From NCBI GenBank assembly GCA_963699155.1, contig OY969414.1, positions 1,093,327-1,157,326 on the forward strand: DNA of 64,000 bases, read 5' to 3'. Positions within the stretch are counted from its first letter, which is position 1, and each line of letters opens with the position of its first letter. The DNA comes from an uncultured Chlamydiales bacterium. Its GTDB lineage: Bacteria; Chlamydiota; Chlamydiia; Chlamydiales; JAAKFR01. Position numbers: made by a program. Shown here piece by piece: positions 9,001 through 24,000 of the stretch.

Positions 9001-12000
9001 CTGTAGCGCCCTTTGGAAAGGGAGGGCGAAGTTTTTTCGGGCATAGGGAGTTTCCTCATGAGCTAGAATGATCATCTCGTAGTAGGTGGGAATGCCAAGT
9101 TCTTGAATTTTAAATGTTTTTGTCTTTATGCCTAGTGATTCTAACTGAGCAGGTTCGATGTTCCAAAATGCTCCATAGATAAAATCGACGCTCTGGGTTC
9201 CCATAGCGGCGACCAGATCGACACTGACATTTTTCTTTTCGCTAGGGGAGATGTTTCCCTGCCCGAGCAAATAGTCGAGGAAGGTGAGCTCAGGATTGCC
9301 GATGCAGTAGCCAAAACGTCTTCCGCTGAGATCACTGGGCGCGGAGATTCCTGGCTCATCGCGATAGATCAGCCCACAGAGAGGCTCTTTGATGAGAAGG
9401 CCCACCATTTTTAAGGGAGCGCCCCGTTCACAGGCTTTCAGCGTACCTGGCAGATGGTTGATCAAGAGATCGGCGCTGGTTCCCAGCAGATAGGAGAAGC
9501 CATCTCCTCCATCATACATCTTCTGAAGGGTGAGAGAGATTCCTTCTTCTGCAAAAAAGCCTTTCTCAATGCCGACATAGAGGGGAATATGATTTGGATT
9601 CGGAAGCCAATCGAGCATCAGGCGGACGTCTCGAGCTTTTTCCTGAGAGGTACAGGAGGAACAACCAAGAACGACCAGGAGCAGAGGAATCATTTTCCAC
9701 TTACGGGGAGGAAGCGCGATCCGCTCACCATAGACGATCAAGAGATAGAGTAGAGTGCTGATCGTTGTTAAACAAAAGAGTGCGCCGAAAGTGATCTCCA
9801 GATCGGCATTGCGGCGACTTTCGAGCATCAAGATACCTAGCCCATTTTGAGCGCCAGCCCACTCCCCAGCGATGGCGCTCACACCGGCGATTGCAGCTGA
9901 GATGCGGATACCTGCAAAGAGATGAGGGAGAGCCCAAGGGAGGCGGAGTTTATAGAAGAGCTGCCATTGAGTGGCATTGTTCGCTTTAAAGAATTCGACG
10001 AGTGGGTCAGGGGTCGATCGGAGTCCCTGATAGAGGTTGAGGGTCAGAGGGAAGAAGATCATGAGAGCTGTGGGGATGACAATCGCTGATAGACTCCATC
10101 CTAACCAGACCACCATGATCGGGGCTAAGGTAAACATGGGTATGCACTGGATCACGATGAAGAGCGGCTGCAGAATGGATCTACTCTTTTTAAAGCGCAT
10201 CATCATCCATGCGAGTGGAAAGGAGACAGAGAGAGCCAGCAGAAATCCAAAGCACATCTCCTTGAGTGTCACGCAGCTATGGAACCAAAACCGATCCCGA
10301 ATTTCCCAGAGAGTACGAAAGACAGCAGAAGGAGGCGGAAGAACAAAGAGCAGTTGAGGAAAACTTCTTGCCATCCATTCCCATAGGGCTGCAACGGCAA
10401 GAAAGCAAATGAGAAAGAGAAGTAAGTGATACCGTTTTTTGACCACGGCGAAAGTTTAATTGCGCTTCTATGGATGGTCAAGAGAAAATAGAGTTAAATA
10501 AAGTTTTTAATTAACATTGAATTATGGCCTACCGCATCGAGAAAGATAGTTTGGGAGAGATCAGCGTACCAGCTGATGCTTATTATGGCGCACAGACGGC
10601 TCGCTCGCTCATCTACTTCAATATTGGTGGGGATCGGATGCCGGAAGCGGTGATCCGTGCTTATGGATTGATCAAAAAGTGTGCCGCGGAAACTAACTAT
10701 GAGCTGGGACTTTTGTCGGAAGAGAAGAAGAATTGGATTGTGGTAGCGGCTCAGGAGGTCATGGAGGGAAAGCTGGACAAACACTTTCCTCTCAAAATCT
10801 GGCAGACGGGTAGCGGGACCCAGACCAATATGAATGTGAATGAGGTGATCGCCAATCGGGCGATCGAAATGGCCGGCGGTGTACTGGGGAGTAAAAAGCC
10901 GGTCCATCCCAATGACGATGTCAACCTCTCTCAATCCTCAAACGACACCTTTCCGACGGCGATGCATATCGCCGCCGTGCAAGCGCTCTTCCATGAACTA
11001 CTGCCACAGGTGCGCACTTTGCGAAAAGAGTTGTCCCATAAATGCATCCAATTCCAAAAAATTGTCAAAATTGGGCGCACCCATCTGATGGATGCAGTAC
11101 CCATCACTTTGGGACAGGAGTTTTCAGGTTATGTCGATCAACTGACACAAGATATTGCTCGGCTGGAATCTGCTCTGCCCGATCTCTTTTCGCTTGCCAT
11201 CGGCGGAACTGCTGTAGGGACTGGTCTCAACTGTCCTCCCCATTTTTCTGAAAAAGTGGTTGAGAAGATAGCCAAAGCGACCAATCTTCCTTTTGTTTCT
11301 GCCAAAAACAAGTTTTCTGCACTTGCATCACATGATGCTCTGGTGGGCGCTCATGGAGCCATCCGGACACTGGTCTGCTCCCTCATTAAGATCGCCACCG
11401 ACCTCACCTTGATGGGATCGGGCCCACGCTGCGGCCTAGGAGAGATCCTCTTTCCCGAAAATGAACCTGGCTCCTCCATCATGCCCGGTAAAGTCAACCC
11501 CACCCAGTGTGAAGCACTGACGATGGTCTGTGTCCACGTCCTAGGAAACGATCAGGCCATCGCCATCGCCTGTACGCGCGGCAACTTTGAGCTCAACGTC
11601 TTCAAGCCGATGATCATCGCCGACTTTCTCGACTCCTGTGATCTGCTCACCGACGCTCTCGCCTCCTTCACCTCCTACTTCATCGTCGGCCTCCAGGCTA
11701 ACGAAAAAAGGATCCGCAGCCATGTCGACCGCTCCCTCATGCTCGTCACAGCGCTCACCCCGATCATCGGCTACGACAAAGCAGCCCAAGCAGCTCTCAA
11801 AGCCTTCCACGAAGAGCTCACCCTCAAGCAAGCCTGTCTCGCCCTCGGCTTCCTCTCCGAAGAAGAGTTTGACAAAGTGATCCAGCCTGAGAAAATGATA
11901 GGGCCCTACGATTAGCCCTTCGTGCGGAAAACGATGGTGGCTCCTGTCGCTTTCTTTTTGGCGCCCAGACGGAGCCAACTGAGGATATTCCAAATCGAAC

Positions 12001-21000: not shown

Positions 21001-24000
21001 GCTCTGCACGCAGGCTCTGCACGGTTTGCTGACCTAAATAGCTAGGCATGCCAGAGATACTGATCACTACCACTGCAGAATCTACATTCCAATCATTCGT
21101 ATCATCTTCACTAGTGAGAAAATATTCTCCAGGGAGTGCATGATTTTGCAGATATTGGGCAGTTTGAATAATGGGGGAGTCAAGTGGCAGGCAATACTCA
21201 CTATAGAGAGAATGACCTCTAAAAAATAGCCGGAGGAGATGAATTTTCGGTAGTAATAAAGTGCCACACACACCTAAGAGTGTGCATGAAATCACTGCAG
21301 GTGCCGCATAGGTAGTTAGGCGCTGTAGTTCTAAAATCTTAATAGCGTAGAACAAAGAAAAAATACCCACGACTACAAATAACAACCCAGAGGGTCTATG
21401 TTGCAATTCATCAAATGTTTGATAAACAGCTGGGGCTAATAAGACGATGCCTATATAAACCACAAGTAAAACCAACGGAAAGAAATCACTGAATTCCCAG
21501 CCAAAACGACGCACTTTGGCCCAGAGGAGCAATGGATAAAGAAAGGTCCAAATGCCCAAAATACCACTGAGCAATAAGAGGATGCCTATGGATATGCTGA
21601 GGAAGGGTTGGTTGAGACTCCAAATAGAGGTGTAAAACTGGGTGTAAAAACTATCTCCACGCTCTAGATGCACTAGATGCAAGAAGGGCAGCACAACCGA
21701 TTGATTGGCGACGTATAAGCTGAGAAATAAGAGAAAGAGGGTACTCGCCAAATAGAAGTATTTTTTTCCATGAAATAGGGTAAGCAGCATCATGGAGATG
21801 AGGGTCGGAAAATATAAAACAAAAAAATGGGCTCGGAAAAGGTAAACAGAAGCGCCAAATAGCAGTGCCAGTAGTCCAACGACGGGGGATTTATCACGTA
21901 ACCATTGTAGAAGAAAAAGAGTGGAAGTGAGGCATCCAATCAATCCGTAGGCTGCACAAGGCGCCACTTGCAGCATATAGCGAAATCCTAAAAAGCCATT
22001 ATGCAGCCCCAGCCAGGAGTTATCGGGTAAAACTAAAAGTGAGATCACACATAAAATTCCGACTGTTTTATTCGCCAGATGTTCGCCGAGAAGATAAATT
22101 GTGAGAGCTAGCAATAAAAATCCTATGGGTATCAACAACGCAGTTGCAGCAATAAGACCATTTAAGTGAGCGGCTTGACTGATGATGGCGGGTAGCAGGT
22201 AGCTTGCGCGGTGATAAGCAAATGGGGGAGTGCCTGCGAGAAAGATATCTCCTTGACCCGCCGCTTTCGCATCAAAAAGTTGGGCGATTTGCGAGCCATG
22301 GTAATAGACATCTACCCAGGTAGACAATGTGCCCTCAGACAATAGTGTAGGAAAGCTTCCAGAAATTTTCCAGCACCATAGTAGGGTAAATACGAGCAGG
22401 CAGAAGAGGACCAGCTGATCCATTTTACTGATATCGAATAGATCTTTGATCGAGATCAACTTTTTAAGAATAAGTACAAAAATTACCGCAGAAAAATAGA
22501 TAAATGAGAGTCCAGCAGGAAGACCGAAAAGACTTGATATGAAGTAGGTGATGAGACTGGTAGTCAAGGCTCCGGTTATGAGATAAAGCAGCCATTTGCA
22601 AGGAAAATTCTTGAGGTTAACTTTTATAAAAAGAGCTGCGCCAGTAGCGACAACAACTATGCTGCCCAAAAGGAGTTCTAGAAAGAGGGGGATAGAGAAC
22701 TCCCCTCCACCACGATGGATTAAAAGGCTCAAGAAGGCCGCTATAAAGAGGTATCCCATCAAAAGTTAATCCGCTCTTTTTCGATAACTAGAGGTCTTTT
22801 CATGACTTGGGTATGGATCGCCCCAATGTATTCTCCGAGCAGGCCGATGAAGAAGAGCTGTACAGAAGAGAAGAAGAAGAGGCCAATGAGTATGGGAGCG
22901 ATTCCTAACGAAAAACTTTGCCAGAAGGTCAGTTTTAGGAGTAGATAGAGCATTGCGATCACTAGACTCATCAAAGAGAGTCCGAAGCCTGCCATTGTGG
23001 CCAGTCGGATGGGGACTTTGGAGTGGCTTGTGATGCCCAGCATCGCCATGTCATAGAGGGCATAGAAATTATTTTTGGTGATGCCTCTTTTGCGGGTTGG
23101 CTGCACGAAGGGAATTTGAATCACCTCAAATCCTACCTCTGAAATCAGACCGCGAAAATAGGGATAGGGGTCGTCAAATTCACGCAGGATTTGGATCACC
23201 GATTGATCATATAAGCCAAAACCTGTGAAATTTTTAATCAATTTCACATTAGCAATTTTTGTGACTAAATTATAGTAGGCCTTACGGATAGCAAACATCA
23301 GCGGAGATTCGCGGCTTTCATTTTTCACACCCACGACAATTTTATGGCCCTGCTCCCACTTATGAATAAACTCGGGGATGAGAGAGAGGGGATCCTGAAA
23401 ATCGGAGGCTAAAAAGATGACGGCATCACCTTTGCCTTGCAAAAGTCCATAAAAAGGGGAGCGGATATGGCCAAAGTTTCGGGTATTAAGAATGAGTTTT
23501 ACTCTTTTATCTTTCTGGGCAATCTCTCGAATGATTTCGACAGTTTTATCACTAGATGCATTGTCAATAAAAATATGCTCATAGCTATAGTTTGGAAGCT
23601 CTGAGAATACATTTTTGATCTGTTCGTGAAGTTCGAGAACATTCTCCTCTTCATTGAAACAGGGGGTGACAATGGTGATCGATTTCATAATTTGCTTCCT
23701 TGAAAAACGAATTCTTTATTGAGCAGATAGGAAAGTAGCGCGGCAGCAATGGTTGAAACTGCGCCTGCTAAGTAGATATTTTCTGTGAAGAGTAACAACA
23801 CTTTTAATGTCATGATATTAGTTAGATAGACAACTCCGTAGGTCAAGATAAATTTAAAAAGGAGTTTGTTATTTGTGTTTGCGAAAACAAATTTTCCCGT
23901 AGTTTTGAAATTAAACAGGATTCCGATAATAGTTGCGAGGAGCATCGCTAATGAATAGTGACATTTCAAGAAGATCAGCAATGAAAAAATGGTATATCCA

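Follow-up and report, generated by a model that had tools for sequence, protein, structure and literature searches.

A candidate surface-glycolipid island with its own MsbA-like exporter paralog in an uncultured Chlamydiales bacterium

Results

Six large genes and the island around them

Here we describe a 64,000-nt stretch of the genome of an uncultured Chlamydiales bacterium (OY969414.1, 1,093,327-1,157,326), hereafter the window, along which all positions are numbered; G000 denotes the source genome, and the other L and G labels denote compared loci and genomes. An earlier note, made from the sequence alone, had described six consecutive large genes at 11912-22762 as a single envelope module. 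The six open reading frames (ORFs) are indeed present, and the homologs found elsewhere for every one of them identify them as genes and not chance frames; they do not form a single unit, however, as the core cassette to which several of them belong is split by a block of decoration genes, and two of its members, a Methyltransf_24-type O-methyltransferase (MT24) and an Acyl_transf_3 membrane acyltransferase (AT3), lie outside those coordinates ( Table 1 ). We propose that the ~22 kb from 11912 to ~33811 make up one surface-glycolipid island with two nested parts, a mobile core cassette and an inserted decoration block, whose glycolipid product would be built in the cytoplasm, flipped by a dedicated paralog of the lipid A exporter MsbA and glycosylated in the periplasm. 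We assign this reading a probability of roughly 0.55.

Table 1. Genes of the candidate island, numbered along the window.
Feature	Position	Strand	Remark
670-aa ORF	11912-13924	-	Most likely 648 aa in reality, 11912-13858
Exporter, 649-aa ORF	13947-15896	+	
PhyH dioxygenase, 252-aa ORF	15913-16671	+	Starts 16 nt past the transporter stop
Polytopic membrane protein, 677-aa ORF	16716-18749	+	Copy 1
Polytopic membrane protein, 652-aa ORF	18877-20835	+	Copy 2; homology from 18799
Polytopic membrane protein, 653-aa ORF	20801-22762	-	Convergent; 35-nt overlap with the 652-aa gene
GtrB/ArnC/PgfS-like GT2	22759-23688	-	PF00535, 2.2e-23
GtrA-family small membrane protein	23685-24059	-	PF04138, 1.6e-16
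Split transketolase (C then N subunit), SDR, APH-like kinase, sulfotransferase	24056-28704	-	Family matches
Glucose-1-phosphate cytidylyltransferase and CDP-glucose 4,6-dehydratase	28846-30719	+	PDB sequence matches
MT24 O-methyltransferase	30785-31933	+	Displaced core-cassette member
AT3 membrane acyltransferase	32525-33811	-	Displaced core-cassette member

Only two of the six proteins, the exporter and the dioxygenase, have Pfam or NCBIfam matches; neither collection has a match for the 670-, 677-, 652- or 653-aa protein. For the 670-, 677- and 653-aa proteins, PDB sequence searches were likewise without a match, and family profile searches (Pfam, NCBIfam, PDB) gave nothing significant. The GC content falls to 0.35-0.42 over 16-22 kb, as against ~0.45-0.50 in the flanks, which together with the patchy distribution of the genes described below is consistent with horizontal acquisition.

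The exporter is a cassette-borne paralog

The exporter matches ABC_membrane and ABC_tran, with MsbA as its best NCBIfam match, in agreement with its earlier description as an MsbA-like half-transporter. It scores 392.8 bits against the MsbA equivalog TIGR02203 (cut-off 602) and 351.3 bits against NF008381 (cut-off 867), and no exporter copy in the genome reaches an MsbA equivalog cut-off. An insertion of about 70 aa after the first transmembrane (TM) segment had also been noted. The insertion is real and somewhat larger: TM1 and TM2 span residues 16-34 and 122-140, respectively, and alignment to TIGR02203 begins only at residue 93. It does not set this gene apart, however, as the resulting loop of ~85 aa, with motifs such as GPDFFxLF, is found in 18/18 aligned chlamydial copies from six families, which rules it out as a mark of the window exporter. 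Our literature searches turned up no account of such an insertion in chlamydial MsbA.

The exporter has orthologs in 295 of the 300 phylum genomes searched, with sequence identities of 50-67% across residues 1-633. Two copies occur in only three genomes of the 300, namely G000, G147 from the same genus and G105 from the same family, and full-length orthologs of the divergently transcribed 648-aa gene, which were found in 3 of 301 phylum genomes, occur in exactly these three. In a maximum-likelihood tree the exporters that adjoin the 648-aa gene, including one copy from a metagenome contig, cluster with 100/100 support and are nested next to the single-copy exporters of the genus to which G105 belongs. 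The other exporters of G000 and G147 fall in a different part of the tree, where they join a further genus of the family. In the source genome the apparent vertically inherited copy is G000:C1:1460092-1461999, and the window gene is the second copy. From co-occurrence and tree, the window gene is therefore a paralog, carried on the cassette, of the MsbA-like exporter of chlamydiae; that it is simply the housekeeping MsbA is ruled out by the two genome copies and their separation in the tree. Between cassettes the exporters are 77-80% identical, the 648-aa proteins only 41-56%.

Further MsbA-like sequences were seen in these genomes. In the G147 cassette (L009), a 128-aa ABC_tran fragment at 5167-5553, lying between PhyH and the intact exporter and 56% identical to exporter residues 393-518, resembles the relic of an additional duplication of the exporter within the cassette. 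In the source genome, the only gene with a Wzy_C (WaaL-like) domain lies ~1 kb from another MsbA-like ABC half-transporter (478105-479619, within G000:C1:476526-479619), and the two may form a second glycan export/ligation pair.

The identity of the exported molecule is where the main rival to our glycolipid reading arises. The MsbA-type half-transporters PglK and Wzk flip lipid-linked oligosaccharides, and an exporter that falls below the MsbA cut-off could therefore have an undecaprenyl-pyrophosphate-linked glycan as its substrate. In an ABC-exporter-dependent O-antigen or capsule-like pathway of this kind, the 648-aa glycosyltransferase (GT) would extend the lipid-linked glycan, the MsbA paralog would act as a PglK/Wzk-type flippase, a ligase would attach the product and the polytopic proteins would add side-branches. 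There is precedent for the last step, as three-component systems are known to add side-branches to ABC-exported O-antigens (PMC11127046), and the genome has one Bac_transf (WbaP-type) phosphoglycosyltransferase gene besides its one Wzy_C gene. However, these two genes lie more than 500 kb off and do not travel with the cassette, which itself has a single predicted cytoplasmic GT and lacks any module for chain length or termination; furthermore, the duplication behind the exporter is very recent, its identity to a housekeeping copy in G105 being 73-77%. On balance we consider the undecaprenyl-pyrophosphate-linked route unlikely.

A core cassette shared with other chlamydiae

The core cassette consists of the predicted 648-aa GT, the exporter paralog in divergent orientation, PhyH, MT24 and AT3, and it recurs in other chlamydiae, so that the co-occurrence across genomes which the earlier note proposed to check is borne out by synteny. 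A compact form on contig L106 has AT3, MT24, PhyH and the ABC exporter on one strand with the 648-aa gene divergent from them; variants carry TylF, MT24 and MBOAT genes (L009/G147), TylF, AT3 and MT23/MT24 (L011/L012), or MT24 together with a split sulfotransferase-like gene (L040/G105 and L091). The latter is present as ORFs of 150 and 132 aa between the 648-aa gene and the exporter (L040 7599-8386, L091 7076-7863); the sulfotransferase gene of the window is intact (27778-28704).

In the window, MT24 and AT3 are 14 kb from PhyH. By whole-genome tblastn the window MT24 is 51-63% identical to the MT24 that adjoins the 648-aa homolog in L009 and L040, and MT24 is also adjacent in L011, L091, L106, L107 and L108; the window AT3 is 58% identical (tblastn) to the AT3 inside the L011 cassette, with AT3 in the L106 operon as well. 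Because MT24 and AT3 are thus orthologous to cassette genes, the ~14-kb block between PhyH and MT24 must be an insertion, and since their counterparts elsewhere sit right beside exporter and PhyH genes, the unit of function reaches ~11 kb past 22762. G147, a member of the same genus, carries the core cassette without the decoration block.

A cassette that exists without the block might also make something other than an envelope component, such as a methylated, hydroxylated and acylated secondary-metabolite glycoside or lipid, with the neighboring Gtr-type block being incidental. Natural-product clusters, too, typically use O-methyltransferases of the TylF and MT24 types, a 2-oxoglutarate dioxygenase and an ABC exporter for tailoring and export, and the missing block in G147 would fit. 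We regard this as very improbable: none of the cassettes showed a scaffold-forming enzyme (polyketide synthase, nonribosomal peptide synthetase or terpene synthase), the exporter descends from the phylum's MsbA-like gene, and one distant locus (L100, below) joins exporter, PhyH, a 677-family protein and GtrB/GtrA genes in one string. Moreover, gammaproteobacterial homologs of the 648-aa gene lie in heptose/GT2 clusters, in one case with heptose genes, GT2, a kinase, a split transketolase and TylF.

PhyH dioxygenase

The 252-aa protein matches PhyH (PF05721) with 31 bits against a cut-off of 22 and retains the HxD, distal H and R positions in all nine homologs (WRCVRPxKxDxGxxHxD, LVHxGP and RxSxE), which upholds its earlier description as a putative HxD…H dioxygenase. 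At E <=0.01 no Pfam family other than PhyH was matched; PF05118 (LpxO family) and PF11004 were not reported at the thresholds used. The gene immediately follows the transporter, as had been noted, with a spacing of 16 nt and not the 17 nt first given, and the adjacency of exporter and oxygenase to which the earlier note drew attention is kept in at least five other loci; the orthologs adjoining the exporter in L009, L011 and L106 are 65-70% identical to the window protein. Our literature searches turned up no account of PhyH enzymes in lipopolysaccharide export either. Other homologs (54-62% identity) are found in chlamydial sugar clusters with SDR genes; in G197 the PhyH gene lies beside a short homolog of the GT-A domain discussed in the next section, and in G198 split-transketolase genes are in the cluster. 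As these sugar clusters lack an exporter, the substrate of the enzyme may be a sugar, an acyl chain being the other option.

A two-domain protein with a predicted GT-A-like fold

The first gene of the island is most likely shorter than its longest frame. The 670-aa version begins at a GTG at 13924, while the stored protein and all homologs begin at M23 of that ORF (ATG at 13858); the product is therefore 648 aa long, leaving a divergent intergenic region of 88 nt before the exporter gene. A word-based search collected 884 clusters of this family from several phyla, none of them annotated.

The protein had been thought to lack any recognizable motif apart from a C-terminal membrane anchor, and structure prediction supports neither statement. 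An AlphaFold2 model built on a 51-sequence alignment (pLDDT 91.8, pTM 0.87) comprises an alpha/beta domain (residues 1-340) and a Rossmann-like domain (440-648), connected by a helical linker. Against the PDB, the top 50 Foldseek matches are all class-I S-adenosylmethionine (SAM) methyltransferases (E 1e-6 and above, TMt 0.21-0.42), covering one domain. Against BFVD the best match is a 342-aa phage protein equivalent to just the N-terminal domain (E 1e-23, TMt 0.84), and further matches include many GT2/GT-A glycosyltransferases as well as methyltransferases. Weak matches to the GT2 family PF00535 in 15 of 51 relatives, one of them above the cut-off (25.5 vs 23.3 bits), align residues ~75-200 with the GT2 core (profile positions 45-165). 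Invariant residues cluster in the N-terminal domain and include D86 and D123, the latter found within FLVSDY, where strand 116-120 ends (after strand 4), as a single Asp without the second Asp of a DxD motif.

The C-terminal domain, in contrast, is barely conserved: across the 51 relatives N624 is the only conserved position in 440-648, and the glycine-rich SAM motif I is absent after strand 460-464, where the sequence reads ETIPNLYQW. Some family members have an additional, true methyltransferase domain. The supposed anchor is only weakly hydrophobic (Kyte-Doolittle 1.45) and is modelled with pLDDT >90 as a helix that runs straight into a C-terminal beta-strand; low hydropathy and the modelled helix-then-strand make a TM tail anchor unlikely, so that the protein is probably not tail-anchored, and peripheral membrane association is possible. 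From the model and the family alignment, we read the 648-aa protein as a cytoplasmic GT-A-type glycosyltransferase (~1-340) joined to a degenerate methyltransferase-like domain.

The phage protein that matched best, A0A6J5PWU5 from an uncultured Caudovirales phage, is 19% identical to the N-terminal domain; as the two share the same fold, this unannotated GT-A-like family is phage-borne too. An hhalign comparison of the 648-aa family with the 435-aa protein of L100, which has no assigned function, gave nothing.

A GtrA/GtrB-like string ending in a predicted GT-C protein

GtrA, the GtrB-type GT2 and the 653-aa gene form one string, as in three-component glycosylation systems, in which neighboring genes overlap by 4 nt here. 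The GT2 has C-terminal TM helices and scores 184 bits against NCBIfam PgfS and 114 bits against ArnC, both under the respective cut-offs, and the GtrA-family protein is a candidate flippase for the lipid-linked sugar. For the 653-aa protein, an AlphaFold2 model from nine homologs (pLDDT 73.8, pTM 0.78) was compared with the PDB by Foldseek: STT3/AglB and DPY19 structures fill the first 17 places (E 1.5e-5 to 1.2e-3, probability 1.0), with AglB/STT3 at 1.5e-5, and after them come ArnT, ALG9, EmbB and PimE, at modest TM-scores of 0.33-0.40. D151 (in WxDxYxHG), H184, R310 and H312 are invariant in the nine homologs; D151 falls after five predicted helices, in a region of low pLDDT (40-58). Homologs sit in nucleotide-sugar/GT2/methyltransferase clusters, and the protein is found in 2 of 300 phylum genomes. 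The modelled fold and the gene order thus support the identification of the 653-aa protein as a GT-C-fold glycosyltransferase and third component of a GtrA/GtrB-like operon, which is the gtr(type) slot in which the earlier note had placed it.

The donor sugar would be supplied by the two CDP-glucose genes, judging from the close PDB sequence matches of the cytidylyltransferase (1tzf, E 2e-104) and the dehydratase (1wvg, E 2e-109). The set of transketolase, SDR, kinase and sulfotransferase genes recurs beside 677-aa, 648-aa or PhyH homologs in L079-L081, L088 and L092.

A large unannotated family of polytopic proteins

The 677- and 652-aa proteins are 63% identical over 667 residues, and the former has 12 strong and 2 weaker hydrophobic segments (~14 TM), in keeping with their earlier description as tandem paralogs with more than 12 such segments; pairwise comparison showed them to be unrelated to the 653-aa protein. 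A word-based search returned 2 matches and made the family look falsely like an orphan, whereas a full HMMER search found 907 representative clusters. These relatives are typically 520-570 aa long and each is matched in two stretches, from which it follows that the window copies carry a central insertion of four TM helices. Hydropathy and the positive-inside rule predict two large loops, both periplasmic, and place D49, D139, R216, R260, H476, H480 and D506 in periplasmic loops; in the family alignment (A4) D49 and D506 are invariant, and D139 is conserved in >90%.

The family adjoins GT2 and/or GtrA genes in four unrelated loci. In one chlamydial metagenome-assembled genome (L016) the 677 homolog comes straight after GtrA and a GT2 that is 61% identical to the window GT2. 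On the metagenome contigs L093, L098 and L100 it lies beside a GtrB-like GT2, which it follows in L093; L098 and L100 have GtrA as well, in strings of the order 677-x-SDR-GT2-GtrA. Furthermore, in G132 a 677 homolog ends an operon of SDR, transketolase and kinase genes, the slot that the 653-aa protein has in the window. L100, from a distant organism, reads ABC exporter (29% identical), PhyH, 677-family protein, small protein, SDR, GT2, GtrA, and its order of exporter, PhyH and 677 is that of the window. Within the phylum the family is found in 3 of 300 genomes and is absent from G147. It is this genomic context above all that leads us to infer a transferase role for the 677/652 paralogs.

In L098, a GMC-type flavoprotein gene (4542-6038) takes the place that PhyH has in L100 (5803-6828), beside the 677-family, SDR, GT2 and GtrA genes; this arrangement suggests that the flavoprotein and PhyH could be interchangeable oxidases that tailor the lipid-linked sugar together with the SDR.

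Alternatively, the paralogs may be no glycosyltransferases at all and rather Wzy/WaaL-type polymerase- or ligase-like enzymes, an option already raised in the earlier note, or flippases for lipid-linked intermediates. A conserved set rich in Arg and His (R216, R260, H228, H476 and H480) recalls enzymes that bind pyrophosphate-linked glycans, and the family has no detectable similarity to the GT-C-type 653-aa family. Nonetheless, we judge this quite unlikely: the family repeatedly occupies the slot of the GT-C partner of GtrB/GtrA, in systems where GtrA is already the flippase; large periplasmic loops with the conserved acidic residues named above fit a transferase; and a Wzy_C match was found for none of 50 members.

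The second copy may be compromised. Its homology to copy 1 starts at 18799 with GTC in place of ATG, shortly after an AGGAGA at 18790-18795, and its first in-frame ATG, GTG or TTG is the TTG at 18877, which lies inside TM1; a start there would cost the protein its first membrane helix and give a wrong topology. Copy 2 may thus have a non-canonical start or be a decaying gene.

Discussion

A proposed glycolipid pathway

Chlamydial lipooligosaccharide (LOS) is usually regarded as a minimal lipid A-Kdo molecule. In the surface-glycolipid reading that we favor, the 648-aa GT would add a sugar to a lipid-anchored acceptor at the cytoplasmic face; PhyH would hydroxylate and MT24 methylate the glycolipid, the MsbA paralog would flip the enlarged molecule, and AT3 would acylate it on the outer face. 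For the acceptor, a lipid A/Kdo (LOS)-type molecule would be the most economical option, our one basis for this being the recent descent of the exporter from the phylum's MsbA-like gene. In the decoration branch, the split transketolase would act with the SDR, kinase and sulfotransferase to tailor a CDP-glucose-derived sugar, which the GtrB-like GT2 would load on polyprenyl phosphate, after which GtrA would flip the lipid-linked sugar and three periplasm-facing polytopic enzymes, the predicted GT-C protein and the two 677-family paralogs, would transfer it to the exported glycolipid. Our data show the modelled folds of the 648- and 653-aa proteins, the exporter's paralogy and co-occurrence, and the synteny, from which we infer the acceptor, the order of these steps and the transferase activity of the 677 family.

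Several observations weigh against this pathway. Besides the sub-threshold MsbA score of the exporter and the presence elsewhere in the genome of a phosphoglycosyltransferase and a ligase-like gene, distant homologs of the 648-aa gene keep MT24 beside them and have no adjacent exporter. The window's own 648-aa protein matches neither PF00535 nor any other Pfam family, and hhalign found nothing between its family and a small GtrB-type alignment of four sequences. For the 677 family, 50 members gave no Pfam, NCBIfam or PDB profile match, Wzy_C included, and hhalign found no link to the 653-aa GT-C family; copy 2, lacking a canonical start, is perhaps not fully translated.

Relation to known systems

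The logic of the decoration branch is that of three-component extracytoplasmic glycosylation (Gtr, Arn; PMC11127046). As in GtrA/GtrB/Gtr(type) of Shigella and Salmonella, CsbB/GtcA/YfhO and PgfS/PgfM, the island has a GT2 with C-terminal TM helices, a GtrA protein and, at the end of the string, a polytopic protein of predicted GT-C fold. Unlike in the Gtr systems, the donor would be not UDP-glucose but a CDP-glucose derivative tailored by transketolase, kinase and sulfotransferase; there are three candidate transferases to one synthase, two of them without detectable similarity to known GT-C families; and the block sits in an exporter cassette and not in a prophage. The ArnC-like score of the GT2 and the strings of 677, SDR, GT2 and GtrA-like genes in L098 and L100 recall ArnC/ArnE-F/ArnT, and a lipid A-type acceptor, as in Arn, is plausible given the MsbA paralog; in contrast to Arn, homologs of ArnA, ArnB and ArnD are lacking, as is any match to the PMT_2/ArnT profile.

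The exporter shares with MsbA, PglK and Wzk the half-transporter architecture of a TM domain followed by a nucleotide-binding domain, and differs from MsbA in its low equivalog score, in its long TM1-TM2 loop and in being a second, cassette-linked copy. LpxO and KdoO are Fe(II)/2-oxoglutarate hydroxylases acting on lipid A acyl chains and on Kdo, respectively. The island's 2-oxoglutarate dioxygenase resembles them in being cytoplasmic, in its genetic tie to a lipid A-type exporter and in its intact HxD...H triad; unlike them, it belongs to the PhyH family and has homologs in exporter-free sugar clusters as well. Finally, the order of a GT-A domain followed by a class-I methyltransferase fold in the 648-aa model is that of GT-methyltransferase fusions from glycan clusters (e.g., the giant-virus matches in BFVD), with the difference that the second domain here has no conserved SAM motif and little conservation, and that a separate MT24 is the constant partner. 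Taken together, the island's logic matches known three-component glycosylation and MsbA/PglK-type flipping; what is new is a cassette that brings along its own MsbA paralog together with a PhyH dioxygenase, and two unannotated protein families.

It is possible, and we put this forward only tentatively, that the mobile cassette extends the minimal chlamydial LOS to a methylated, hydroxylated, acylated and side-branched glycolipid that needs its own MsbA paralog, and that the 677 family is a new class of periplasmic transferases dependent on polyprenyl-phosphate sugars (~900 clusters), coupled to MsbA-type exporters and PhyH in distant bacteria. If so, a mobile sugar and tailoring cassette would mean surface-antigen diversity in the phylum, and the private flippase copy would offer a natural system for asking what determines MsbA substrate specificity. 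The recurring string of exporter, PhyH and polytopic protein ties an oxygenase to the export of lipid-linked glycans; furthermore, two unnamed families, the 648-aa (>880 clusters) and the 677-aa (907 representative clusters), gain testable roles.

Other ORFs of similar length

Three further ORFs of the window have lengths of 677 (47104-49137), 652 (50075-52033) and 677 aa (56456-58489). The agreement in length with the polytopic proteins is a coincidence, as they encode a transketolase, a sulfatase and a glycogen debranching enzyme, respectively; a gene for a formylglycine-generating enzyme adjoins that of the sulfatase.

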